DNA from: an uncultured Eubacteriales bacterium
GTDB lineage: Bacteria > Actinomycetota > Coriobacteriia > Anaerosomatales > CAVRZR01
Direction of reading: 5' to 3'
NCBI GenBank assembly: GCA_964354215.1
Contig: CAYGYT010000002.1
Span: forward strand, 19,595-83,594
Length of the DNA stretch: 64,000 nucleotides
Under the pieces are notes generated by a model that saw nothing but the letters and a program-made list of their open reading frames with translations, was not told where the DNA came from and made no database searches. Shown piece by piece: positions 29,336 through 42,765 of this stretch. The translations under genes and the position numbers were made by a program. The first letter of the stretch is position 1; the number at the start of each line of letters is the position of its first letter.

Positions 29336-31339
29336 GTGATTATCTCCCTCGACAAGGTCACGAAAACCTTCGGTGACCGAGTCCTCTTTGCCGAGGCAAG
29401 CTTGAGGGTGAGCGCCCGCGGACGCGTCGCGCTCGTCGGGCCGAACGGCGCGGGCAAGACCACGCTCCTCGAAATCGCAGCCGGTGAGCAGGAGCCCGAC
29501 TCCGGAACCGTGACCCTGGTCAAAGACGCGGTCATCGGGTACCTCAAGCAAGAAGCCATCGAGATGGCCGGCCGCTCGGTACTCGCAGAGGCGCTCACGG
29601 CAGCAGAGCATGTGACCTCTCTGGAGCACCGTCTCAAGGTCCTCGAGGAGGACATCTCCTCGGCAGACTCCGGCCCCGATCAGGAGCGCCTCCTATCGGA
29701 ATACGGCCGCTTGCGAGAACGGTTCGAGACGCTGGGGGGCTACACGATCGAAGCGGAGGCTCGGGCGGTACTGACCGGGCTCGGCTTCTCCGAGAGCGAC
29801 TTGAGACGTGACTCCTCCGAGTTCTCGGGCGGGTGGCTCATGCGCCTTGCGCTCGCGAAGCTGCTCCTGCAGCAGCCTGACGTGCTCCTGCTCGACGAGC
29901 CGACGAACCATCTCGACCTCGAGTCCGTCACCTGGCTCGAGGGGTTCTTGCGCTCCTACGAGGGTGCCGTGATCCTCGTCAGCCACGACCGGGCGTTCAT
30001 GGACGGCCTCGTGGACCACGTGGCCGAGATCGACCTCCACCGAGTGACGGTCTATGCCGGTTCGTACGGCGACTACGAACAACAGCGCGCCCTCGCACTC
30101 GAGCAGCTACAGGCCGCCTACGACGCGCAGCAGCGCGAGATAGCGCACATGCAGAAGTTCATCGACCGTTTTCGCTACAAGGACACCAAAGCGCGGCAGG
30201 TCCAGGACCGCGTGAAGAAACTCGAGAAGATCGAACGCATCGAGCTTCCGGAAGGCCGCAAGAAGGTGAAGTTCCGCTTCCCGCAGCCTCCTCGCACGGG
30301 AGAGCTCGTCATGGATCTTCGGGACGTTCGCAAGGCGTACGGCGACAATGTTGTATACGAGGGGATCGACCTAGCGTTGTACCGCGGTGACAAGGTAGCG
30401 CTCGTTGGTCCCAACGGGGCCGGGAAGTCGACGCTTCTCAAGCTGCTCGCCGGAGCGATCGAGCCTGACGGCGGAGCTCGGATTCTCGGCGTGCACGTAG
30501 ACGTGGCGTACTTCGCCCAGCACCAACTCCAGTCCCTCGATATGCGCGCCACCGTGTTCGGCGAGATCGACAACGTCGCTCCCGGGTGGACGCAGGCGGA
30601 GGTACGGAGCCTTGCAGGCGCGTTCCTCTTCACGGGAAACGATGTCGACAAGAAGGTGAGCGTGCTGTCGGGAGGGGAGCGAGGACGGCTCGCTTTGGCA
30701 AAGATGCTCGTCAAACCGGCCCCGTTCCTCTGTCTTGACGAGCCCACCAACCACTTGGATATCGCGTCGAGCGATGTGCTCGAACAGGCACTGCTCGCCT
30801 TCCGGGGCACACTCGCCCTTATCACCCACGACCGGCACCTCATCAGAGCGGTCGCGAACAAGGTGATCGAAGTGCGAGACGGTCGGCTGGTGGTGTTCGA
30901 CGGTGACTACGACTACTACCTCTTCAAGCGTGCTGAACGAGAGAAGGCCGACGCAGATTCAGCGCCTTCGACTCCTCCTCGCGGCACACGTCCCACCGCA
31001 GCTCCCGGTCAGGCACGTCCGGAATCCGATAGTGCGGTCAGCGGACCGAAGACCCGCGAGCAGAAGCGGGCTGAGGCCGAAGCGCGGAACCGTGCGTACC
31101 AAGCGACGCGAGAACGCAAAGAACGCCTCGCTTCGCTCGACGTCCGCCTCCAGGAGGCGCAGGCGCATCACGCGAAACTCTTGGAGCGCATGGCAGATCC
31201 GGCCTTCTATGAGAACCGCGCCGCGTTCTCAGCGGCCATGGAGGAGTACTCAGAGCTCAGAGGGGAGCTTCCTCGGCTTGAGGAGGAGTGGCTCTCCCTC
31301 ACGCAGGAGATCGAGGACCTTGAGTCGAATGAACTCTAG
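29336..31339 (+). CDS. ABC-F family ribosome-associated ATPase
   Basis: Two ABC cassettes ([27 protein letters not shown]; [18 protein letters not shown]), linker, C-terminal coiled coil, no TM. Confidence 0.95.
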
Positions 31340-31353
31340 AGTTCACCGGGGGT

Positions 31354-31394
31354 TTGTAACAATGTTTACAATCGGGGAGCGTTCTCGCTAGAAT
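31354..31394 (+). promoter_or_regulatory. nuo operon promoter (TTTACA-N18-TAGAAT) overlapped by palindrome TTGTAACAATGTTTACAA
   Basis: AT-rich dyad 31354-31371 overlapping the -35; -10 at 31389-31394. Confidence 0.65.
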
Positions 31395-31462: not shown

Positions 31463-31485
31463 GTTTGTAACAGCTAGTTACAAAC
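31463..31485. promoter_or_regulatory. Second operator-like palindrome in the nuoA leader
   Basis: Perfect GTTTGTAAC-N5-GTTACAAAC; shares GGTTTGTAACA with the upstream site. Confidence 0.7.
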
Positions 31486-31513: not shown

Positions 31514-31882
31514 GTGCAGGCGACGGGTTCGTCGGGTTTGCTTTTCGTACTCGGGGCGGCTCTCGCCGCCGCGGGGTTCATCGGCGTGGTCTTCCTCGCG
31601 AACGCCGCGCTCTCGCCCCGCAAGCCGACTCCACTCAAGGTCGAGCCGTACGAGTGCGGCATGGAGCCGCAAGGCTACCCGTGGGGGGTCGTGCGCCTTC
31701 GTTTCGCGGCTATCGCCATGGTGTTCGTCCTCTTTGACGCCGAGAGCGCGCTGCTCCTCTCCGTCGCAAGCGCGCTGCGTGGCTCTTGGGTGGCGGCGGT
31801 TGAGATCGGCGCCTTTGCTGCATTCCTGGCGTTCGGCCTCTTCTACGCGTGGCGAAAGGGAGCGCTCGAGTGGCGCTCGTAG
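31514..31882 (+). CDS. nuoA: NADH-quinone oxidoreductase subunit A
   Basis: [30 protein letters not shown]. Confidence 0.95.
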   Translation: MQATGSSGLLFVLGAALAAAGFIGVVFLANAALSPRKPTPLKVEPYECGMEPQGYPWGVVRLRFAAIAMVFVLFDAESALLLSVASALRGSWVAAVEIGAFAAFLAFGLFYAWRKGALEWRS

Positions 31883-32469
31883 ACCGCCTCGGCGAAGCCC
31901 TGGGCCGCAACCAAGGGGGGCTGATCCTCACCTCCGTGGACGCACTCGTGGGCTGGTCGCGAGGCCAGTCGTTGTGGGCGATGCCCATGGGTACGGCGTG
32001 CTGTGCGATGGAGCTCATTGCCGCTTCATTCAACAAGTTCGACTTCGATCGCTTCGGCACGTTCCCGCGCCCTGATCCGCGGCACACAGACGTTATGGTC
32101 GTCGCAGGAACGATCACGCGGAAGATGGCGCCGGCCGTCAAGCGGCTCTACGAGCAGATGCCCGACCCGAAGTGGGTGGTCGCGATGGGCAACTGCGCGG
32201 TGTCGGGCGGCATCTTCTACTACGACACGTACTCGGTGGTACGCGGGGTCGACGAGTTTCTGCCGGTGGATGTGTACATCGCTGGCTGTCCTCCGCGGCC
32301 CGAGTCTCTCCAGGACGGGATCCTGCGCCTGCGCGAGCTCGTCCGGACTGAGTCGCTTGCCCCGGGAGTCCGTCATGAGCGCACGCTCGTTTTGCCGTTC
32401 GAACCCGACCGCGCCGAGTCCCCATCGGCGATCGAGACAGCGAAGCCGGGGTCGGGTGACAGAACGTGA
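31870..32469 (+). CDS. nuoB: NADH-quinone oxidoreductase subunit B (cluster N2)
   Basis: [43 protein letters not shown]. Confidence 0.96.
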
Positions 32470-32927
32470 AGCTCGATGACCTGCGCGCACACATATGCGA
32501 CCTGCACCCCGATCTGTGCCCGCTCTTCTCGGTGGAGTTCGAGGACGGCACACTCCAGGTCGTGCCGGAGGGTCTTCATGCGGCCGCCGATGATCTGAAG
32601 TCGCTCGGGTTCGACCGCCTCGGCATGGTGACGGCGGTGGACCGGGGGGATGTCTTCACGCTCGTCTACCGCCTCCAGTCCCGTTCGCTCGAGGCGGCGA
32701 TCTTCCTCAAGGCAGACGTTTCGCGACTGGAGGCCCGGATCGATTCGCTGTGTGACCTGTGGCCCGCTGCCAACTGGCAGGAGCGTGAGGTCTACGACCT
32801 GTTCGGCATCGTGTTCGAGGGGCACCCCGATCTGCGGCGGATCATGCTTCCTGACGACTGGGAGGGACACCCGCTTCGCAAGGACTACCACGACGCCCGC
32901 GTGATACCGCGGCCCGACTACATCTGA
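32466..32927 (+). CDS. nuoC: NADH-quinone oxidoreductase subunit C
   Basis: [43 protein letters not shown]. Confidence 0.96.
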
Positions 32928-33003
32928 TCGCCCGCACCGACACACGGAGCGGCGAAGCAGCCGCACAGTCCCCGAGGGTGGCGCACACGAGAGGAGGGAT
33001 GAG

Positions 33004-34149
33004 ATGGCACTCGACATCGAGACGAGAACGACGGCTGTCGACCAGGACGGTCGCAACGTCGAGGAGCTCGTAGTCAACGTCGGGCCGTCGCATCCGTCCA
33101 CGCACGGGGTCTGTCGCGTCATCGTCCATTTGGACGGCGAGATCGTCACGAAAGCGATCCCGGTCGTCGGCTACCTGCACCGCGGTATCGAGAAGATGGC
33201 GGAGAACCGAACCTACCTTCAGGTCGTGCCGCTGACTGACCGACTCGACTACGTCGGCTCCATGTACGCCAACTGGGCGTACTGTCGCGCCGTCGAGCGC
33301 CTTGCGGACATTCGTATCCCGGAGCGTGCCGAGTACCTCCGCGTCATCACGTGCGAGATGCAACGCATCGCTAGCCACATGATGGCGCTCGGCTCTTCGG
33401 CGGCCGACACGGGCGCCTTCACGATGTTCATCTACGCCTTCGACGTGCGCGAGCGGATCATCGAGCTCTTTGAGGAGCTGTGTGGCGCGCGGCTCACCTA
33501 CAACTACGTGCGTCCGGGTGGTGTGTCCTTCGACGTGCCCGACGGATGGACCGAGCGGCTTCTCGACTTTGCGAGCAACGCTCCGGCGCAGTTCGCCGAG
33601 ATGGACAGACTCTTCTTCGGCAACGTGATCGCTCGCGGGCGACTCAAGGACGTCGGCGTTCTGTCAGCCGAAGACGCCGTCGCCTGGGGTGCGTCGGGCC
33701 CTGTCGCGCGCGGCAGCGGCGTGAACTGGGACTTGAGGAAGAACGACACGTACTCGGTGTATCCGCGATTCGACTTCGACGTCCCGCTCGGCGAGAACGG
33801 GGACTCGTACGACCGGGCGCGCGTTCGCCTGTTTGAGTGCTACGAGAGCTGCAAGATCCTCACTCAGGCCGTCGAGCAGATGGAGCCCGGCCGCGTCATG
33901 GTCGAGGGCCTCCCGCGACTGCTCGCTCCTCGCCCGGGAGACGCGTACGACCACATCGAGTCCGCTCGTGGGTCGCTCGGCGTCTACCTCGTGTCCGATG
34001 GCAGCGTGAGGCCGTATCGCATGAAGGTCCGCTCGCCCGCGTTCTGCAACCTGGCGTTGCTCGGACACCTCGCCCCCGGTCACACGCTTTCCGACCTCGT
34101 CGTGATCCTCGGCTCTCTCGACCCTGTGTTCGGCGAGGTGGACCGATGA
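33004..34149 (+). CDS. nuoD: NADH-quinone oxidoreductase subunit D (quinone-binding; not a [NiFe] large subunit)
   Basis: GPSHPSTHGV, GYLHRGIEK, DRLDY, ESARG, KVRSPAF, GSLDPVFGEVDR; no CxxC Ni ligands. Confidence 0.96.
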   Translation: MALDIETRTTAVDQDGRNVEELVVNVGPSHPSTHGVCRVIVHLDGEIVTKAIPVVGYLHRGIEKMAENRTYLQVVPLTDRLDYVGSMYANWAYCRAVERLADIRIPERAEYLRVITCEMQRIASHMMALGSSAADTGAFTMFIYAFDVRERIIELFEELCGARLTYNYVRPGGVSFDVPDGWTERLLDFASNAPAQFAEMDRLFFGNVIARGRLKDVGVLSAEDAVAWGASGPVARGSGVNWDLRKNDTYSVYPRFDFDVPLGENGDSYDRARVRLFECYESCKILTQAVEQMEPGRVMVEGLPRLLAPRPGDAYDHIESARGSLGVYLVSDGSVRPYRMKVRSPAFCNLALLGHLAPGHTLSDLVVILGSLDPVFGEVDR

Positions 34150-35096
34150 GCTCCCTTCTCTCGGGCGCCTTGTTCGGCCTGCTGGCGGGGCTCGCAATCG
34201 CGCTCGCGGCCCTGATCGGCGTGTGGGCCGAGCGCAAGGTCTCGGCGAAGATCCAGATGCGTATCGGCCCGAACGAGGCGGGTCCGGCGGGCCTGCTCCA
34301 GACGCTCGCGGATACCGTCAAGCTCGTCTTGAAGGAGGACATAACGCCGAGACAGGCGGACGTGCGGACGTTTAGGATCGCGCCGTTCCTCGTGTTCACT
34401 CCTATCGCCGTATCGATGATCGTAATCCCGTACGCCGCTGGGTGGGCTCCCTTCGAGTCCTCCGTGGGCGTGCTCTTCTTCCTGGCCGTGCCGTCGATCT
34501 CGGTGATCGGGGTACTCCTCGCCGGCTGGTCGTCCCGGAACACATACGCAACGCTTGGCGGAATCCGCGGGGCGGCTCAGATGATCTCCTACGAACTGCC
34601 CCGAACCCTCTCAGTCGTCGCCCTGTGCGTGATCGCCGGCTCCATCGCACCGACAACCGTTCTTGGAGAGTGGCGGTGGTGGTGGTTGCCATTGAACCTG
34701 ATCGGCTTTGTCGTGTACTTCATCAGCTCGATAGCCGAGCTCAATCGCGGCCCCTTCGATATCCCTGAGGCCGAGTCCGAACTCGTAGCCGGCTACTTCG
34801 CGGACTACTCGGGCATTCGCTGGGCCATCTTCATGATGGCCGAGTACGGGGGCGTTCTGGCTGCGTCGCTCTTCGGCGCTGCGATGTTCTTCGGCGGCGG
34901 ACTCGGGATCGGCGGGTGGCTCGGCGTCGTGATCATGATCGGCATCGCCGCGGTGATCGCAACGACCATGATTTGGGTCAAGTGGACCTTCCCCCGCATG
35001 CGGGCAGACCAGCTCATGTCACTCGCGTGGAAGGTCCTCACGCCTCTTGCCCTGCTCCAACTCGTGCTGGTGGGGGTGGTGGCGCCGTGGCTCTAG
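34146..35096 (+). CDS. nuoH: NADH-quinone oxidoreductase subunit H
   Basis: ERKVSAKIQMRIGP, GLLQTLADTVKL, RGAAQMISYE, ELNRGPFDIPEAESELVAGY, TFPRMRADQLM. Confidence 0.96.
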   Translation: MSSLLSGALFGLLAGLAIALAALIGVWAERKVSAKIQMRIGPNEAGPAGLLQTLADTVKLVLKEDITPRQADVRTFRIAPFLVFTPIAVSMIVIPYAAGWAPFESSVGVLFFLAVPSISVIGVLLAGWSSRNTYATLGGIRGAAQMISYELPRTLSVVALCVIAGSIAPTTVLGEWRWWWLPLNLIGFVVYFISSIAELNRGPFDIPEAESELVAGYFADYSGIRWAIFMMAEYGGVLAASLFGAAMFFGGGLGIGGWLGVVIMIGIAAVIATTMIWVKWTFPRMRADQLMSLAWKVLTPLALLQLVLVGVVAPWL

Positions 35097-37144
35097 AAGA
35101 GCATGACGAGGTGCGCGTCACCCGCACGATTACCGTTTCCGACGACTACGCTCCCGGAGTGCGCGGTTTCGGACAGAAGTGGCGCTCGCTTCTCACCGGA
35201 ATGGCCATTACCGGACGAAAGTCGGTCGGCAGGCCGACTACGTTGAAGTACCCCTTCGAGAAGTTCGCCGTGTCGCCGAGGTGGCGCGGGGCACTGCGGC
35301 TTCAGGGTGTGCTCGGTCGCGACGACGTACCGCTCCTGCAGGCATCGCCGCCTGAGTACAACGCATCGATCGACGAGGCGTGGCGCGCAGAGCGCCTAGC
35401 GCCGTGTGTGGGGAACTGCCCCGCGAACGTGGACGCACGCGGTCAGAACTTCCTTATGGCGGAAGACCGCACGACCGAGGCCTACGAGCTCGTGCGCAGG
35501 CGCAATGTCCTGCCGGGCGTCTTGGGCAGGATCTGTCACCACCCGTGCGAGACGGCGTGCCGCCGGAACTACTACGACGAGCCCTTGGCCATCCGGCCGC
35601 TTCACCGGCAGGCGTACGAGCGATTCCAGGAGGAACGGCCGGGCGCATTGCAGCCGCTGCCCCGCACGCGAGATCAAGAGATCGCCGTCATCGGCGCCGG
35701 ACCATCGGGCCTCGCAGCAGCCCTGGACCTTCGGACGCTCGGGTATGGCGTTACGGTCTTTGAGAAGGAGAACACGTCGGGCGGCGCTCTATACTCCGGC
35801 GTGCCCTCGTATCGGCTACCCCGGGACGTGCTCCAACGCGAGATCGACGACCTCGTCGAACTGGGAGTGGACATCCGCCACGGTCTTGAGATCGGCCGAG
35901 ACGTTCCGCTCGAGCATCTTCACGGCGAGTACGACGCGGTGCTCATCGCCGTCGGCCTGCAGGAGAGTCGCATCCTTCCCATTCCGGGCCACGAGGCCGA
36001 CGGAGTAGTCGGCGCTCTCGACTTCCTTCGAGCCGCGAACTGGAAGGGCGAAGCCGGCGTGCGCGGCAAGCGCGTACTGGTGATCGGAGGCGGCAACGTG
36101 GCGGTCGACTGCGCGCGATGCGCGCTTCGTGTCGGCGCGTCCGAAGTCCGCCTCGCGTCTCTCGAGTCCGAAGACGAGATGCCTGCCCATCCGTGGGAGA
36201 TCGAAGAAGCGCTCGACGAAGGCGTCATCGCCACGTGCTCCGTGGGACCCGAGGAAGTGCTCGTCGAAGACGGGCACGTCGTCGGTATGCGAATGCGTGA
36301 GTGCCTCTCCGTGTTCGACGAGGTCGGGCGATTTTCGCCCAAGTTTGGCGAGAACCTCACGGACTTTCCGTGCGATGTGCTCGTCTTCTCGATCGGTCAG
36401 GCCGCTACGCTCAAGAACATCGTGGCAGGCTCTGACATCCTGCTTTCGGAACGCGGGCTTCTGCCGGTCGACGGCGCGATCATGACGACCGATGTTGATG
36501 GCTTCTTCGCCTGCGGAGAGGTCGTGACGGGACCCGGCAGCTGTATCGGCTCCATCGCGACCGGCCACGAAGCCGCTACCTCGATCCACCGATACCTCAA
36601 CGCTTCGAGCACCACCGAGGATCGCGTCTATCGACCGGTACCGGTATACGACAGATACGAGCCGGCAACGCTCGACGGCGTCGACGCGAGTCGCCGGCGT
36701 GTCGAGATGCCGATGGCCCGACCCGAAGAGCGCCGCGCGGACTTCCGGCCGGTCGAGCTCGGCTTCACCCGCCTCGAAGCGCTCTCGGAAGCGGCACGCT
36801 GCCTGCGCTGCCAGTCTGAGGTCTGTGTCGGCTGCACGTTCTGCGCCCGGACGTGCCCCGACTACGCGATCCAGGTCGAGCGCGTCGACGATCCCGGCGA
36901 TCGACGCGTCACGCGCTACGACCTCGACTTGACGAAGTGTTGCTTCTGCGGCCTGTGCGCGGAGCAGTGTCCCACCGACGCGCTGCGGCATACCGCCCAG
37001 TACGAACTCAGCTTCTACCACAGAGATCTGGCTGTATTCGATCGCGAGGAGATGCTCCGCAGCGGTGAGGGGACGCGCGCCACCGGTCGTGACGTCGAAC
37101 GAGAGGACGCGGCCGCGCCTGTCGCCGAGAGGAACAGCGAATGA
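35087..37144 (+). CDS. nuoI: NuoI-like subunit with an inserted GltD/DsrL-like FAD/NAD(P)H/2x[4Fe-4S] oxidoreductase module (685 aa)
   Basis: NuoI N-part TTLKYPFEK..PRWRG; insert APCVGNCP, GRICHHPCETAC, GAGPSG, GGGNVAVD, EAARCLRC; NuoI C-part CVGCTFCARTCP..YDLDLTKCCFCGLCAEQCP..YELS..R...FDREEML; occupies the nuoI position between nuoH and nuoJ. Confidence 0.9.
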   Translation: MALEEHDEVRVTRTITVSDDYAPGVRGFGQKWRSLLTGMAITGRKSVGRPTTLKYPFEKFAVSPRWRGALRLQGVLGRDDVPLLQASPPEYNASIDEAWRAERLAPCVGNCPANVDARGQNFLMAEDRTTEAYELVRRRNVLPGVLGRICHHPCETACRRNYYDEPLAIRPLHRQAYERFQEERPGALQPLPRTRDQEIAVIGAGPSGLAAALDLRTLGYGVTVFEKENTSGGALYSGVPSYRLPRDVLQREIDDLVELGVDIRHGLEIGRDVPLEHLHGEYDAVLIAVGLQESRILPIPGHEADGVVGALDFLRAANWKGEAGVRGKRVLVIGGGNVAVDCARCALRVGASEVRLASLESEDEMPAHPWEIEEALDEGVIATCSVGPEEVLVEDGHVVGMRMRECLSVFDEVGRFSPKFGENLTDFPCDVLVFSIGQAATLKNIVAGSDILLSERGLLPVDGAIMTTDVDGFFACGEVVTGPGSCIGSIATGHEAATSIHRYLNASSTTEDRVYRPVPVYDRYEPATLDGVDASRRRVEMPMARPEERRADFRPVELGFTRLEALSEAARCLRCQSEVCVGCTFCARTCPDYAIQVERVDDPGDRRVTRYDLDLTKCCFCGLCAEQCPTDALRHTAQYELSFYHRDLAVFDREEMLRSGEGTRATGRDVEREDAAAPVAERNSE

Positions 37145-37641
37145 GCCTCCCACCCGCCGGCATCCTCGCTCTGGCGATCGCCGCGATCGCGCTTGTCGGC
37201 GCTCTCGTCGTCGTGATGACTCGCGACGTCATGCGGCTCATGCTCGGGCTGGGGGCGGTGCTACTGAGCGTCGCCGGGCTCTTCGCCGTGGCCGGCGCGA
37301 GCTTCCTTGCGGTGGCCGAAGTGTTCGTGTACGTGGGTGGCGTGCTCGTCCTCTTCCTCTTTGCGATCATGCTCGTCCACCGTTCGGATGGCGACGTCCC
37401 GGTTCTCGAGTCCCGCCACGACCTGCTCTCCGTAGTCGTCGCCCTCGGCGCGTTCTTCATGCTCGTGGCGACGCTCGGTCCCGCCGCACGAGCCCTTGAC
37501 CTCGCCGCCATCAAGGGCGGGACAAAGGCGCTTGCAGACGTCCTGCTCGGATCGATGTTGGTGCAGTTCGAAGCGGCCGGCGTGCTGCTCCTTGCCGCCC
37601 TCGTGGCCGTCGTCTCGATTCTGGGGGGAGAACGCCGATGA
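37141..37641 (+). CDS. nuoJ: NADH-quinone oxidoreductase subunit J
   Basis: FLAVAEVFVYVGGVLVLFLFAIML, FEAAGVLLLAALV. Confidence 0.93.
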   Translation: MSLPPAGILALAIAAIALVGALVVVMTRDVMRLMLGLGAVLLSVAGLFAVAGASFLAVAEVFVYVGGVLVLFLFAIMLVHRSDGDVPVLESRHDLLSVVVALGAFFMLVATLGPAARALDLAAIKGGTKALADVLLGSMLVQFEAAGVLLLAALVAVVSILGGERR

Positions 37642-37949
37642 GCATCCTCGTCCTCTCGGCGGCGCTCTTCTGCGTGGGCCTGTACGGCGTATTGGTTCGC
37701 CGAGACATCATCGCCGTGCTCGCTTCCATCGAAGTCATGCTCGCCGGCCCACTCGTTCTTCTCGTGAGCGTCGCCGCTTCGATTGCCGCGGGTGCGGGAC
37801 AACGCGCCCAGGGCGCGGTGCAAGCCGTCGGGCTCATCGTGCTCGTCATCGCCGCTGCCGAGGCGGCCGTCGGCCTGGCCCTTCTCGTTGCCGTCTCGCG
37901 TTCTCGCCGGGTGACCCGGTTCGACGAGCTCACGGAGGTGCGTGGCTGA
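37638..37949 (+). CDS. nuoK: NADH-quinone oxidoreductase subunit K
   Basis: GLYGVLVRR, SIEVML, IAAAEAAVGLAL. Confidence 0.93.
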   Translation: MSILVLSAALFCVGLYGVLVRRDIIAVLASIEVMLAGPLVLLVSVAASIAAGAGQRAQGAVQAVGLIVLVIAAAEAAVGLALLVAVSRSRRVTRFDELTEVRG

Positions 37950-39829
37950 TGGGATGGCTGCACCTCGCTCCACCGCTGGCCGTTGCGGGATCGTTCGCGC
38001 TTGCGCTCCTGGTCGCCATCGTGGGAAGACGAGCACGGCCGCTCGCACCGCTCCTCGCGCTTCTGGCTCCGCTGTCGGTGCTGGCCGTCGGCGTGGCGTC
38101 CCTCGCGCGCCAGCCGGTGGGTCAAGCGCTCGCCGAAACCACCGGTACGCCGGCCCCGTGGCTCGGGCGCATCGTGTCGAGCGGCGTGTTGCCGTGGTAC
38201 ACGACGGAATCCATGCGCCTGACCGTCGGTTGGACTGTGGACTCCCTCGCCGCCATCATGTTGGTCGTCGTCGGGGTCGTCGCGAGCATGGTCGTGCTCT
38301 TCTCGATCGGCTACATGGCTGGCGACAGAGGCTGGGCCCGCTACTTCGCGCTCCTCGCTCTGTTCACGGGGTCGATGACGCTCCTCGTGATCGCGAGTGA
38401 CTTCACGGGCCTGTTCATCGGCTGGGAACTCGTTGGTGCGTGCTCGTTCCTCCTGATCGGGTTCTGGTTCGAGAAGCCCTCGGCAATGCACGCTGCCACC
38501 AAGGCGTTCCTCACAACACGGGTGGGAGACGCGGGCATGCTGCTTGGTCTCGCTCTCCTGTGGCGGGCGACCGGCTCGCTCGCGTACCGCGAAGTCTTCG
38601 GCGCCCTCGGCGCTCTGCCTGTGGCCGTGCTCACGGCGACAGCGCTGCTACTCTTCGTCGGCGCCGCAGGTAAGTCCGCTCAGTTCCCGCTGCACATCTG
38701 GCTACCGGATGCCATGGAAGGCCCGACGCCCGTCTCCGCCCTCATCCACGCCGCGACCATGGTTGCCGCGGGGGTGTTCCTTGTCGCGCGCACGTGGCCG
38801 CTCTTCGAGGCCGCTGAGACGGCTCGTGCGGTGATCCTCGGCATTGGCGTCATCACGGCGTTTGGTGCGGCGACCATCGCCGTCGCACAGCGCGACATCA
38901 AGAAGGTTCTCGCGTACTCCACGATCAGCCAGCTCGGGTACATGATGAGCGCTCTGGGCGCGGGCGCCCTCGTCGCCGGTATGTTCCACCTGGTAACCCA
39001 CGCAGCGTTCAAGGCGCTCCTCTTCCTCGCCGCCGGGAGTGTTATCCACGGCGCGGGAACACAGGACCTTCGCGACATGGGCGGGCTGAGGCGGTTCATG
39101 CCGTGGACGGCGCTCACGTGGGTCATCGGGGCCGCAGCGCTCGCCGGCGTGCCTCCGCTGGCCGGGTTCTTCAGCAAGGACGCGGTCGTGGCGTCCGTGT
39201 GGGTCGCCAACCCGTTGGCGGGACTCACCCTCACGGCGTCGAGTGCTCTCACGGCGTTCTACGTGGCCCGCGCAACCCGGCTTGCCTTCTTCGGCGACTA
39301 CCGAGGCGACGGACACGCGCACGAGAGTCCGTGGAGCATGCGCGGTCCACTCCTGCTACTCGCGATTCCCGCGGCCGGGCTCGGGTTCGTTGCCACCCGG
39401 TTTGCCGAAGTGCTCGGTCACGAAGCAGAGACCTTCAACGTTCCGCTCCTCGTGGCATCCGTGGTGGTGGCGCTTGTAGGCATCGCTGCCGGTTGGCTCG
39501 TCGAAAGCAGGGGAGCCGCGAGCGATGAGGCGCTCGAGAGCACGCTCGGCGGCGTCTGGAGAGGTGCCGCGCGCGGTTGGGGCGTGGACGCGTTCGTGAA
39601 CCGGTTCGTGGTCCGGCCGTCGGTGGCGACGGCCCGCGTGGCGTACGCGTTCGTCGACAGGTTGCTCATCGACGGTGTCGTCGAAGGAACGGGTGCGCTT
39701 GCGGGCCGGCTCGGGCAGATGTTTGCAGAGCTCCAGAATGGCGACGGCCAGTGGTACGCGACACTCATCGCCGTCGGGGTCGTGCTCATGCTCGTGGCAA
39801 CGATGTGGATGGGGAGGGCGGGGATATGA
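37949..39829 (+). CDS. nuoL: NADH-quinone oxidoreductase subunit L
   Basis: FIGWELVG, GKSAQFPLHIWLPDAMEGPTPVSALIHAATMV, KKVLAYSTISQLG, THAAFKALLFL; long C-terminal helix. Confidence 0.96.
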   Translation: MGWLHLAPPLAVAGSFALALLVAIVGRRARPLAPLLALLAPLSVLAVGVASLARQPVGQALAETTGTPAPWLGRIVSSGVLPWYTTESMRLTVGWTVDSLAAIMLVVVGVVASMVVLFSIGYMAGDRGWARYFALLALFTGSMTLLVIASDFTGLFIGWELVGACSFLLIGFWFEKPSAMHAATKAFLTTRVGDAGMLLGLALLWRATGSLAYREVFGALGALPVAVLTATALLLFVGAAGKSAQFPLHIWLPDAMEGPTPVSALIHAATMVAAGVFLVARTWPLFEAAETARAVILGIGVITAFGAATIAVAQRDIKKVLAYSTISQLGYMMSALGAGALVAGMFHLVTHAAFKALLFLAAGSVIHGAGTQDLRDMGGLRRFMPWTALTWVIGAAALAGVPPLAGFFSKDAVVASVWVANPLAGLTLTASSALTAFYVARATRLAFFGDYRGDGHAHESPWSMRGPLLLLAIPAAGLGFVATRFAEVLGHEAETFNVPLLVASVVVALVGIAAGWLVESRGAASDEALESTLGGVWRGAARGWGVDAFVNRFVVRPSVATARVAYAFVDRLLIDGVVEGTGALAGRLGQMFAELQNGDGQWYATLIAVGVVLMLVATMWMGRAGI

Positions 39830-41265
39830 TCGCCGTCGACCTCCTCGTCCTCGTGCCCTTGGCCGGCGCCGCGATCGCGCTCGTCGGCGGGCGGGCGCGC
39901 CCCACGGTCTGCCGATGGGTGGCGCTCGCTACCTCCGTGGCAACACTGGGCCTTGCTGTCGTCGTTGGCCTTGCCGGAGCGTTCGCAGGGGAGCGTGTTG
40001 CCGGAACGCACGTCGTGACCCTCGGCTTCTGGCGCCTTACCGCCGACGGACTCTCGATGCCACTCGTGGCGCTGACCGCTCTGCTCGGTGTCGCCGCGGT
40101 AAGCGCGTCCTGGCGCATCGACAAGCGACCGAGTACCTACTTCGCGCTGCTGCTGTTCCTGCAAGCGGCAGTGACGGGGGTATTCCTCGCCGAGGACTTG
40201 ATCCTTTTCTACGTCTTCTGGGAACTCGTGCTCATCCCGATGTACTTCCTGATCGGCGGTTGGGGTCACGAGCGACGCAAGCACGCAGCTGCGAAGTTCT
40301 TCATCTACACGTTCCTCGGCAGCGCCCTCATGCTCGTGGGCATTCTCGTAGCCATCTACGCGGCGCGCGCGTGGACGATTCCCGATCTCGTCTACCTCGC
40401 CGCGCGCCAGCCGCAAAGCGCACTCGTGTTCTGGTTGCTCATGGCGGGTTTTCTGGTGAAGGTCCCCGCGTTTCCGTTCCACACGTGGCTGCCCGACGCG
40501 CACGTGGAGGCGCCCACGGCAGGGTCGATCATGCTCGCAGGGGTTCTGCTCAAGATGGGCGGGTACGGCATACTACGCATCGCCATCCCGCTCGCTCCGC
40601 CCGCGTTCGAATCCGCCCGCGGGATACTCTTCGCCATCGGCCTGGTTGGCATCGTCTTCGGCGCCTTCACCGCGCTCGTGCAGACCGATTTGAAGCGTCT
40701 GGTGGCGTACTCGTCGGTCTCGCACATGGGCTTCGTCCTCGTGGCGATCGCAGCAGCGAGCAGCGGCGCCTTCGGCGCTGCCATGCTCGGCATGGTGAGC
40801 CACGGCTTTGTCGCGGGACTCCTCTTCCTGCTCGTCGGCCTCCTGTACGACCGCACGCACACACGCGAACTCCGCCGATTCGGCGGCCTCGGCTCTGTGA
40901 TACCGGCGTGGTCGGTCGCCTTCGTGTTCGCGTCGCTCGCGAGCCTGGGCCTCCCAGGTCTCTCGGGCTTCCCGGGTGAGTTCGCGAGCGTGCTCGAAGG
41001 GTTCCGATCGTTCGGCTGGTGGATTGTCGTCGCCACCTTCGGCGTCGTCTTCGCAGCGGCGTACACGCTCCGCGCAGTCCGAGGATCGGTCCAGGGGCCG
41101 GTCGGCGAGTTCGATGCGCTTTCCGATCTTGCCACTCGTGAAGCCGTGACCGTCGGCGCCTTCGGCCTGGCCATCCTGGCGCTCGGCGTTTGGCCCAACA
41201 GCGTGCTTCTGATGGTGGACCCGGCTCTCCGCTCCCTTGCCGCGCTCGTAGGGACGGGGAGCTAG
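39826..41265 (+). CDS. nuoM: NADH-quinone oxidoreductase subunit M
   Basis: FYVFWEL, VKVPAFPFHTWLPDAHVEAPT, LLKMGGYG, KRLVAYSSVSHMG, LGLPGLSGFPGE. Confidence 0.96.
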   Translation: MIAVDLLVLVPLAGAAIALVGGRARPTVCRWVALATSVATLGLAVVVGLAGAFAGERVAGTHVVTLGFWRLTADGLSMPLVALTALLGVAAVSASWRIDKRPSTYFALLLFLQAAVTGVFLAEDLILFYVFWELVLIPMYFLIGGWGHERRKHAAAKFFIYTFLGSALMLVGILVAIYAARAWTIPDLVYLAARQPQSALVFWLLMAGFLVKVPAFPFHTWLPDAHVEAPTAGSIMLAGVLLKMGGYGILRIAIPLAPPAFESARGILFAIGLVGIVFGAFTALVQTDLKRLVAYSSVSHMGFVLVAIAAASSGAFGAAMLGMVSHGFVAGLLFLLVGLLYDRTHTRELRRFGGLGSVIPAWSVAFVFASLASLGLPGLSGFPGEFASVLEGFRSFGWWIVVATFGVVFAAAYTLRAVRGSVQGPVGEFDALSDLATREAVTVGAFGLAILALGVWPNSVLLMVDPALRSLAALVGTGS

Positions 41266-41268
41266 CCG

Positions 41269-42765
41269 ATGACGCCCGAGATCGCCTTTGCGACCCCTCT
41301 CGCGCTCGCGCTTGTCGGCGCGGTCCTGGCGCTTGCTGCCGACGCCCTCGACAGGGAGCGCATGGCGGCTCTGACCTCCACGGCGCTTCTTCTCGTGGCT
41401 GCCGCGGTCGCTGTGGTCGCATCTGCCACCGTGACTCCCGAGACCGTCTGGACGGTCTTTGCCGTCGGCGCCGGCTTCTCAATGGCCACGGGCGTCGTGA
41501 TGTTGTTCGGAGCCCTCGGTGTGCTAGCGAGTCTGTCAGCGCCTCGAGAAGGCAGCACGGCTCTCGCCGGGCTCGTCGCACTGTCGGCTGCCGCACTCGC
41601 AACACTCGCTTCCTCGACGGACATCGTCGTCATGCTCCTGGCGCTCGAGACCGCCGCCCTGAGCGCGTATGCGCTCATAGCGCTCGCGCGCACGCCACGT
41701 GCTCATGAGGCGGCGATGAAGTACTTTGTCCAGGGCTCGATCGCGACCGCGCTCTTCGTGTTGGGGCTCGCCGCCGCCCTCCTCGCCGGGGTGTTCGTGC
41801 TCGCCGACGGGAGATTCGGTGTTGCTGATAGTGGAGTCAACCTGTCGGCTGCCACCACAGCAGTGGCGCTGCTGCTGGCCGCGTTCGCGTTCAAGCTCGG
41901 CGCGTTTCCCTTCCACGCATGGGCGCCTGACGCCTACGAGACGGCACCCCCCGAAGTCGCCGCCTTCCTTGCTTCGGCAGTCAAGGTAGGGGCGCTCGTA
42001 GCCACCTACACGCTGTTAACGTCCGTGATCGCCAACCCCGACCTGATCGCTCGCACGCAGTGGCTCGTCGCCGGCATCGCTGCGGCCTCCGTCGTGTTCG
42101 GCAATCTCGCCGCCCTCGCTCAGCGTTCGTACGCTCGGCTCCTCGCATACTCGGGTATCGCCCAAGTGGGCTACGGCCTGACCGCCATCGTGACCGGGAA
42201 CGGGAACGCGGCACTGCTCTTCGCGACCGCCTACGGCTGTGCCGCGGCCGGCGCGTTCGCGGCAGCTCGTGCCTACGAGCGCGTCCGGCCGGAGTGGGAT
42301 GGATCCATCGCCGGCATGGCGGGCCTTAGCCGTCGCGCGCCCGTCGTCTCGGCCGCTCTGGCCGTGCTCCTCTTCTCGCTTACCGGCATCCCGCCGCTGC
42401 TCGGCTTCTGGGGGAAGTTCCTCGTTTTCCTTTCGGCCGCCGCCAGTCCGGAGTGGCTCTGGCTGGTCGTCGTCGGCTTGCTCGGGTCGGTCGTCTCGTT
42501 TGGCTACTACGGGCGCATTCTCAGGACGCTCTACTTCGATGAACCGTCCGAGGCTGCGATCGAAGATCTCGAGGAGCAAACGGGCTTCCCAGTTGCCGAT
42601 GAAGCAGCATCGGCGCCACGGGGGCTGGACCCGGCCGGGTGGGTGGTGGTCGCGCTTGCGCTCATCGTCATCCTCTTGGGATTGGCGCCACTCGCGGCAG
42701 GACTCGCGCGATACGTGGGGATCGACCCGGTCGGGCTCTTCACTCTCGGCCCCTTCGGCGGATAG
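41269..42765 (+). CDS. nuoN: NADH-quinone oxidoreductase subunit N
   Basis: EAAMKYF, FKLGAFPFHAWAPDAYE, RLLAYSGIAQVGY, GIPPLLGFWGK, YYGRI. Confidence 0.95.
   Translation: MTPEIAFATPLALALVGAVLALAADALDRERMAALTSTALLLVAAAVAVVASATVTPETVWTVFAVGAGFSMATGVVMLFGALGVLASLSAPREGSTALAGLVALSAAALATLASSTDIVVMLLALETAALSAYALIALARTPRAHEAAMKYFVQGSIATALFVLGLAAALLAGVFVLADGRFGVADSGVNLSAATTAVALLLAAFAFKLGAFPFHAWAPDAYETAPPEVAAFLASAVKVGALVATYTLLTSVIANPDLIARTQWLVAGIAAASVVFGNLAALAQRSYARLLAYSGIAQVGYGLTAIVTGNGNAALLFATAYGCAAAGAFAAARAYERVRPEWDGSIAGMAGLSRRAPVVSAALAVLLFSLTGIPPLLGFWGKFLVFLSAAASPEWLWLVVVGLLGSVVSFGYYGRILRTLYFDEPSEAAIEDLEEQTGFPVADEAASAPRGLDPAGWVVVALALIVILLGLAPLAAGLARYVGIDPVGLFTLGPFGG

Follow-up and report, generated by a model that had tools for sequence, protein, structure and literature searches.

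An 11-gene operon for a complex I (nuo) lies on the plus strand of a 64,000-nucleotide stretch (hereafter, the window) of the genome of an uncultured anaerobic bacterium of the Anaerosomatales (Actinomycetota, Coriobacteriia; assembly GCA_964354215.1, contig CAYGYT010000002.1, positions 19,595 to 83,594). The genome, of 2.3 Mb, is 97.8% complete. The operon is compact (31514-42765) and has the order nuoA-B-C-D-H-X-J-K-L-M-N, in which X, an ORF of 685 codons, occupies the canonical position of nuoI between nuoH and nuoJ; it begins with a GTG upstream of the nuoH stop (35096), so that the two genes overlap, and the start of nuoJ (37141) falls at the stop of X. A first-pass annotation of the window had described this gene order, noted that nuoE, nuoF and nuoG are missing from it, and read X as a NuoI interrupted by a flavoprotein module. 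NCBIfam models name 10 of the 11 genes, most of them above curated cut-offs, and a scan with these profiles found no nuoE, nuoF or nuoG within the operon, in agreement with the gene order claimed. As detailed below, the sequence evidence also confirms that X is a NuoI into which a complete GltD-type module, with sites for FAD, NAD(P)H and two [4Fe-4S] clusters, has been inserted.

Both flanks of the insert are recognizable as NuoI. The N-terminal 99 residues alone match NuoI/NdhI models only (best E 4e-6, residues 34-72) and include the NuoI signature T52..Y55-P56..R65-W-R67-G68, of which T52, Y55, P56, R65, R67 and G68 are invariant in 30 homologues with identities down to 36%. At the other end, residues 570-665 match NuoI models, residues 575-663 match the TYKY/NuoI chains of complex I in the PDB (E 5e-22), and the two CxxCxxCxxxCP motifs (C580/583/586/590-P and C618/621/624/628-P) are invariant in 30 sequences. 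The intact protein scores under every NuoI cut-off and matches TIGR01971, the NuoI model with a cut-off of 113.05 bits, in two stretches with 94.9 bits. When residues 80-577 were excised in silico, joining residues 1-79 to 578-685, the product matched the same model over positions 1-121 of 121, in one stretch and with 115.9 bits. The excised protein is thus a full-length NuoI above the cut-off, and the profile matches of the flanks place the insertion point in the loop that follows the RxRG motif; the NuoI-like start and end of the ORF, and the loop, had been correctly identified in the first-pass annotation. Its placing of the NuoI-like end at about residue 578 needs some precision: the end itself stands, and in our numbering the closing cysteines of the module are C572 and C575 while the NuoI motif starts at C580.

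The insert consists of recognizable parts. A Pfam search gave Fer4_20 at residues 105-183 (56.5 bits) and Pyr_redox_2 at 198-491 (86.5 bits), both above the gathering score, followed by Fer4_7, a two-cluster ferredoxin domain, at 580-632; NuoI halves around Fer4_20 and Pyr_redox_2 are what had been expected of a domain search. The FAD motif G203-x-G205-x-x-G208, the NAD(P) motif G334-x-G336-x-x-A339 and the cysteines C107, C111, C150, C154, C158, C572 and C575 are invariant in 30 NuoI-type sequences (identities down to 36%), and R243, the FAD-side Arg equivalent to R201 of NfnB and R239 of StnC, is invariant in the NuoI-type family. The cassette also includes a linker helix and a closing segment, residues 536-577, with C572-x2-C575. 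With its domains, both nucleotide motifs and the cluster cysteines in place, the module is complete, as claimed. The coordinates of these parts, of the other nuo genes and of the region upstream are collected in Table 1; nuoN was assigned from its position, the size of its ORF and synteny rather than by a family-model scan.

Table 1. The nuo locus and its upstream region (positions are those of the window)
Feature	Position	Strand	Basis
Rex-like operator 1, TTGTAACAATGTTTACAA, overlapping the -35 of the promoter-like site	31354..31371	+	motif match, conservation
Promoter-like site TTTACA-18-TAGAAT	31365..31394	+	consensus match only
Rex-like operator 2, perfect palindrome TTGTAAC-AGCTA-GTTACAA in the leader	31465..31483	+	motif match, conservation
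nuoA	31514..31882	+	NCBIfam NuoA models
nuoB, with all four N2 cysteines (CC, C, C)	31849..32469	+	NF005012, 220 bits, above cut-off
nuoC	32466..32927	+	TIGR01961, 123.8 bits, above cut-off
nuoD, quinone-type, without Ni-Fe ligands	33004..34149	+	NF004739, 465.7 bits, above cut-off
nuoH, ATG start overlapping the nuoD stop	34146..35096	+	NF004741, 308.9 bits, above cut-off
nuoI with inserted flavoprotein cassette, 685 aa	35087..37144	+	domain, profile, structure-model and conservation evidence
NuoI N-terminal part, aa 24-79	35156..35323	+	NuoI/NdhI model matches; invariant motif; AlphaFold2 helix
Inserted circularly permuted GltD/NfnB/StnC-type cassette, aa 80-577	35324..36817	+	Pfam, PDB alignments, residue conservation, Foldseek
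NuoI 2x[4Fe-4S] ferredoxin domain and NuoI-specific C-terminal tail	36818..37096	+	NuoI models; PDB TYKY/NuoI chains
nuoJ	37141..37641	+	NCBIfam
nuoK	37638..37949	+	NCBIfam
nuoL, full length	37949..39829	+	NF005141, 602 bits, above cut-off
nuoM	39826..41265	+	TIGR01972, 465 bits, above cut-off
nuoN, 498-aa ORF	41269..42765	+	position, size, match to NuoN of all syntenic loci

The cassette is permuted in the order of its segments. The EAxRCLxC segment, which precedes CxxxCP in GltD and NfnB, is placed after the flavin domains (residues 536-577), and the alignment with NfnB of T. maritima (4ylf_B) breaks into two parts in exchanged order, NfnB residues 3-48 matching residues 536-581 and NfnB residues 46-461 matching residues 106-506. 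The circular permutation proposed earlier is therefore real, but it is not special to this protein: the order CxxxCP, FAD, NAD(P), EAxRCLxC is a hallmark of StnC, of NfnA of Nfn-ABC, of PRK12771 and of YgfK, all of which are collinear with residues 100-630 of the fused protein. By the ligand pattern of DPD and NfnB, we take C111, C150, C154 and residue 173 to be the likely ligands of the proximal cluster, and C107, C158, C572 and C575 to be those of the distal cluster. The latter set comes from both ends of the cassette, so that the distal cluster would lie at the junction of the ends, right beside C580, the first NuoI ligand, which is found five residues after C575. The idea that a single cluster joins the two ends of the module, just ahead of the first cysteine motif of NuoI, is upheld at the level of the sequence.

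Two positions divide the cassettes into subtypes. Residue 173 is a His in this protein, as it is in 90% or more of the 30 NuoI-type sequences, and S358-L359-E360-S361 replaces the NADPH-type motif YRR(T/S) after the β2 strand of the second Rossmann domain. In an alignment of 12 rows, His173 is found together with S-L-E360-S in all of the Coriobacteriia-type rows and in rows L074 and L076, as opposed to Lys173 with YRR in the L077, L078 and L079 fusions; StnC and NfnA also combine Lys with YRR, and NfnB has YRR but a Glu at the position equivalent to 173. As a rule for Rossmann folds, an acidic residue in place of the Arg that binds the 2'-phosphate points to NADH. Because Glu360 occupies the place of the second Arg of the YRR of NADPH-type relatives, the alignment suggests that the nucleotide used in this clade is most likely NADH rather than NADPH. 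The genome also codes for a 672-aa paralogue (C4:64594-66612; L083:10595-12613, minus strand) that joins the same permuted cassette to a ferredoxin and an MvhD/FlpD domain; it is 39-41% identical to the insert and may be a relative of the cassette donor.

An AlphaFold2 model of the fused protein, built from an alignment of 82 sequences, has a mean pLDDT of 90 and a pTM of 0.85, with pLDDT values of 93-95 over the C-terminal junction and an N-terminal helix at residues 24-47. When the model was used in a Foldseek search, the StnC/NfnA chains (8oh5, 9bov and 9n5u) ranked first (TMq 0.63-0.64), before NfnB, GltD and DPD. The best sequence matches in the PDB, collinear over residues 100-629, come from the same group: 9bov_A, which is NfnA of the Caldicellulosiruptor Nfn-ABC (E 2e-90), and 8oh5_C, which is StnC of Sporomusa ovata StnABC (E 3e-85), as well as 9n5u_A, NfnA of the Thermococcus NfnABC. 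In StnC, a NuoG-like domain surrounds the cassette (residues 102-565), to which FAD, NADPH and two [4Fe-4S] clusters are bound and whose non-bifurcating flavin starts a linear chain of clusters (PMC10482914).

The same fusion in a nuoH-nuoJ context, which the first-pass annotation had envisaged for other genomes, was found across the order and in distant lineages. When genomes representing species were scanned, 45 loci were recovered at 63-82% identity; with few exceptions their labels are Coriobacteriia, Anaerosomatales or unclassified Actinomycetota, and the order nuoABCDH-X-JKLMN is found in every one that was long enough to show the operon. In a sample of the class, the fusion was present in 128 of the 146 genomes of the order (58-82% identity, residues ~10-675 covered); matches in the other orders were no stronger than those of soluble paralogues (E 1e-60 to 1e-103). 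Eight divergent proteins from metagenomes or metagenome-assembled genomes, one of them of an Actinomycetota and the others without a taxon label, are 34-52% identical; seven lie in the same nuo operon and the eighth, on a short contig, directly after nuoD. The public labels of the relatives are only 'FAD-dependent oxidoreductase' or 'glutamate synthase beta subunit-like'.

In a quick maximum-likelihood (ML) tree of the cassette alone, the His/Glu type is grouped with 99% SH-aLRT support. The NuoI-embedded cassettes as a whole are split by the tree, and their union in one clade is rejected by an AU test (p 0.0017), so that a single origin of all of them is tentatively rejected. Repeated insertion at the same NuoI loop, or a later exchange of cassettes, may account for this; the inference of multiple origins is tentative because of long branches and of the exchange just mentioned. 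Two other candidates for distant NuoI fusions (L073:2016-4100 and L062:1134-3170, from unclassified bacteria of the rumen and other sources) were set aside as lacking a nuo context, by a Pfam scan for L073, which returned no match for the four ORFs adjoining the gene, and by tblastn for L062. Their products, of 679-695 aa, have a NuoI-like N-terminus (..VTEQYPW..), a permuted cassette and a ferredoxin domain. In a lineage known from metagenomes (L077:72-4944), a NuoE-like gene and a gene for a 1389-aa StnC-like protein with [2Fe-2S], cassette and molybdopterin domains lie immediately upstream of the operon with the NADPH-type nuoI fusion; two cassette-bearing proteins are thus encoded at one locus.

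The remainder of the enzyme resembles a quinone-reducing complex I. NuoB retains the N2 ligands; NuoD aligns best with mitochondrial 49-kDa subunits (bovine, E 1e-102) and keeps the His (GPSHP), Tyr (DRLDYV) and Asp (AADTGA) of the quinone site; and NuoH and NuoL/M/N are of full length. The operon accordingly has the core features of the 11-subunit type, NUO11, and the earlier description of an intact NuoB, a quinone-type NuoD without Ni ligands and full-length NuoL and NuoM was correct, as it was for NuoN by size and synteny. The genome has two further NUO11-like operons (C16:9418-20717, and C60:1-5885 with C11:1-3823; L080, L081 and L082), with ordinary short NuoI ORFs of about 156 and 186 aa; the insert is present in only one of the three. 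No input genes were found among the scanned ORFs that neighbour the two plain operons. Three complex I-like operons are many for a genome of this size, and the C16 operon has a fused nuoCD and extra antiporter-like subunits.

An input head encoded elsewhere was also considered. The only NuoF-like match in the genome scores 485.7 bits, under the cut-off of 558.65, and adjoins a NuoE-like gene and a gene for a selenocysteine formate dehydrogenase (Sec-FDH). This locus (C4:55674-61273; L083) codes for the NuoE-like protein, the NuoF-like protein, which has extra [2Fe-2S] and ferredoxin domains, and the alpha subunit of the formate dehydrogenase, with an in-frame TGA; a CooC-like ATPase gene is found nearby. 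The NuoE/F-like genes belong to a soluble unit of the FDH/HydBC type, which may be bifurcating. As the only such genes belong to the Sec-FDH unit, a nuoEFG-encoded head elsewhere was ruled out. The premise that nuoEFG are missing therefore holds for the operon, but not to the letter for the genome, since NuoE/F-like genes do exist at C4.

Upstream of nuoA, two copies of a palindrome, TTGTAAC-N4/5-GTTACAA, one of them in the leader, may link the operon to the redox state of the cell. Genome-wide, the palindrome has eight matches at up to two mismatches; two are those upstream of nuoA, one (C18:21242-21259) lies 14 nt upstream of a rex homologue (Pfam 58 bits; cut-off, 27), and none was found before the other two nuo operons. 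Other copies precede a radical-SAM gene and an adjacent ORF without annotation (C19) or lie close to genes for a Tat-signal molybdoenzyme (C51) and a cytochrome-b-like protein (C30). Of 38 related loci, 36 have the palindrome no more than 400 nt ahead of nuoA, and a tally of its matches in 614 kb of such loci places 46 of 47 in that region. The natural reading is that it represents a candidate Rex operator of the order, although it differs from the published Rex consensus sequences. Rex would then tie the operon with the fused nuoI, and not the plain sibling operons, to the NADH/NAD+ ratio. Directly upstream of the nuo promoter region lies a gene for an ABC-F (EttA/Uup-like) translation ATPase (window 29336-31339).

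Taken together, these observations make it likely, in our judgement, that the operon encodes an 11-polypeptide complex I with an NAD(P)H-input head built into NuoI, which feeds menaquinone and pumps protons, the cassette probably replacing the missing three-subunit NADH-input head. A continuous wire is the most economical reading because in StnC and NfnA the same permuted cassette serves as a non-bifurcating input, with electrons passing from NADPH to FAD and then from cluster to cluster. The pyridine nucleotide, in this clade most likely NADH, would bind the second Rossmann domain of the cassette and reduce FAD, from which single electrons would pass to the proximal [4Fe-4S] cluster (likely C111, C150, C154 and H173) and on to the distal [4Fe-4S] cluster (likely C107, C158, C572 and C575), where the ends of the cassette meet. 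They would then enter the two NuoI clusters (N6a/N6b) and reach, through N2 in NuoB, the quinone site of NuoD/NuoH, with menaquinone made by the futalosine pathway as the presumed acceptor and with NuoL/M/N pumping protons. Rex probably switches the operon on when the NADH/NAD+ ratio rises, and the two NUO11 enzymes with a plain NuoI would take other donors. In this scheme, we infer the occupancy of the cofactor sites, the ligand assignment, the nucleotide preference, the acceptor, the direction of flow and the role of Rex.

The weakest link is the quinone as the acceptor. Menaquinone synthesis by the futalosine route looks possible, from the presence of genes for MqnE (500 bits; cut-off, 435), MqnC (476 bits; cut-off, 428) and MqnA (255 bits, Pfam), an MqnP-like prenyltransferase and a UbiD-like protein; MenA was not found in the genome. 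Moreover, genomes of the order that have the fusion tend to have MqnC as well (odds ratio 10, p 0.002). Several points weigh on the other side. Neither of the two cultured strains of the order yielded detectable respiratory quinones (PMC9686372), and among 89 high-quality fusion-bearing genomes there are 25 without MqnC, including one of the same genus; a UbiA-family prenyltransferase is kept in 24 of these 25, which decides nothing on quinone synthesis. As to the rest of the scheme, the NADH preference is built on one position of an alignment and a general rule, and Rex was assigned to the palindrome from resemblance and position only. Directly after mqnE-mqnA-mqnC lies a gene (C6:35843-37117) for a 424-aa flavoprotein of the pyridine-nucleotide-disulfide type with a hydrophobic C-terminus, which may be an NDH-2 or an SQR-like quinone reductase; its family matches are weak.

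The complex could also work in reverse, menaquinol from a membrane-bound hydrogenase or formate dehydrogenase delivering electrons which, driven by the proton-motive force, would pass through NuoI and the cassette to NAD(P)+ for use in biosynthesis. Complex I is a reversible enzyme, and a Tat-signal molybdoenzyme and a cytochrome-b-like protein are encoded in the genome. The GltD-type modules of Nfn and Stn run in both directions (PMC10482914), and the cultured Anaerosomatales use H2 or formate for growth, together with sulfur, thiosulfate or Fe(III) (PMC9686372). Nevertheless, we regard this direction as unlikely, as the SLE motif points to NADH, while an anabolic supply would more naturally be of NADPH, and as Rnf and an NAD-linked formate dehydrogenase are already available for making reduced nucleotides. 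Rex-type control, if that is what the palindromes stand for, usually switches on functions that consume NADH when NADH is high.

Less probable still is a quinone-independent pump akin to Rnf or Mbx, in which electrons from ferredoxin or another partner would pass through the NuoI clusters and the cassette to NAD(P)+, or in which NAD(P)H would reduce a non-quinone acceptor at NuoB/D. The quinones undetected in the cultured relatives and the MqnC-less genomes would fit such a pump, as would the role proposed for gltD-like flavoproteins that stand at the place of NuoI in mbx-like operons (Degli Esposti, 2015; PMC4758237) and the ferredoxin donor proposed in the description of the order (PMC9686372). 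It is at odds with the His/Tyr/Asp triad of NuoD and its closeness to mitochondrial 49-kDa subunits, with the futalosine genes and with the association between MqnC and the fusion; moreover, Rnf is present in the genome, so that a second ferredoxin:NAD+ machine is not needed. True NUO-type complexes are not known to have a coupling site other than quinone chemistry.

Bifurcation or confurcation, in which an NfnB-like FAD would share out electron pairs, partly to the chain of clusters and partly to another acceptor such as ferredoxin, would be in keeping with the homology of the cassette to NfnB, whose FAD bifurcates, and with the invariant R243. We consider it very improbable: the operon lacks an NfnA-like [2Fe-2S]/FAD partner and the fused NuoI therefore offers only one path for electrons out of the flavin, the nearest relatives by sequence and segment order, those of the StnC type, are non-bifurcating, and the proximal cluster would have a His where NfnB has a Glu. 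Finally, a misassembly, a frameshift joining two genes or a decaying gene was ruled out for practical purposes by conserved synteny, by the invariance of the functional residues and by a confident fold at both junctions, since the same uninterrupted ORF and operon recur in well over 100 independent assemblies (45 species-level genomes in one scan and 128 of the 146 of the order).

Returning to a complex I whose NuoI carries its own NAD(P)H-input head, a wider reading may be sketched, which we put forward tentatively and hold to be somewhat less probable than its negation. The cassette would be a second, independent, FAD-based head for complex I, derived from a mobile permuted GltD cassette in a single NuoI loop that was entered more than once, with NADH-type (His173/Glu360) and NADPH-type (Lys/YRR) forms; and one cell would possess three complex I enzymes with different inputs.

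The electron donor of the widespread 11-subunit complex I has been an open question for decades, and according to a study of 2024 a common donor has yet to be identified (PMC11238625). The fusion hints at the electron source of headless complexes I of this kind at least and, as the donor module is physically part of the complex, opens the question to direct tests in an entire order and in several further lineages; the order has two cultured members, which may carry the fusion. In the paper that describes the Anaerosomatales, nuoNMLKJIHDCBA are listed, NuoEFG are noted to be missing and ferredoxin is put forward as the donor, with the fusion unmentioned (PMC9686372); if our reading is right, the inference of a ferredoxin-run complex I in this order would have to be corrected. 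It would also mean that the function of the N-module can be supplied by one inserted domain of ~500 residues, which would be of use for minimal or engineered forms of complex I, and that the idea of a 'plug-in' NAD(P)H cassette, derived from the NuoG-like StnC and from NfnA, reaches a membrane respiratory enzyme. The NADH-type and NADPH-type variants would constitute a natural experiment on nucleotide specificity. No earlier description of a flavoprotein insertion in NuoI was found in the full-text literature, where PMC4758237 and PMC9686372 come nearest; the first-pass annotation had guessed as much, and its guess holds as far as the searched literature goes, the closest statement in print being a remark on gltD-like genes in PMC4758237.

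Among known systems, StnC and NfnA are closest to the insert. They share with it the permuted GltD cassette, collinear over residues 100-630 (E 1e-81 to 1e-90), the cysteines, the FAD-side Arg and an input from pyridine nucleotide through FAD to two clusters, and in StnC, too, the cassette is inserted into an Fe-S wire protein, there in its NuoG-like domain. They differ in that their host is a soluble NuoG/FdhF-like subunit, whereas the host here is the NuoI of a membrane complex I, in having HydBC-type bifurcating partners, of which the nuo operon has none, and in the NADPH motif YRR in place of SLE; the strictly conserved Lys170 that serves as a proximal-cluster ligand in StnC is His173 here. 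NfnB, GltD and the N-terminal module of DPD also have Fer4_20 and two Rossmann domains (29-32% identity, TMt 0.77-0.80), but their proximal-cluster ligand is a Glu or a Gln rather than a His, and the counterpart of the N-terminal residues 3-48 of NfnB is found after the flavin domains in the fused NuoI.

Canonical NuoI (Nqo9, NDUFS8 or TYKY) has the N-terminal helix, the T..YP..RxRG signature, the two CxxCxxCxxxCP motifs, the C-terminal tail and the nuoH-nuoJ position, without the ~500 extra residues that provide FAD, an NAD(P) site and two more clusters. The NuoEFG N-module has the job that we propose for the cassette, to oxidize NADH and pass single electrons to N6a/N6b, but employs FMN, a [2Fe-2S] and several [4Fe-4S] clusters on three subunits, as compared with FAD and two [4Fe-4S] clusters in one NuoI loop and in an unrelated fold. 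Thermotoga and proteobacteria have mbx-like operons in which the place of the NuoI homologue is taken by a GltD-type NAD(P) flavoprotein, for which reduction of NADP+ was proposed, as a prediction only; by its description, that case is a substitution in a non-quinone complex of the Mbx/Mrp type with a hydrogenase-like NuoD (Degli Esposti, 2015; PMC4758237), whereas the complex described here is a NUO11 with a quinone-type NuoD and with NuoI kept on both sides of the insert. Lastly, the headless 11-subunit complex I, NDH-1 and Fpo have the same 11 core genes and likewise lack NuoEFG; they rely on a separate donor, ferredoxin or F420H2, whereas the complex I encoded here would carry a dehydrogenase of its own.

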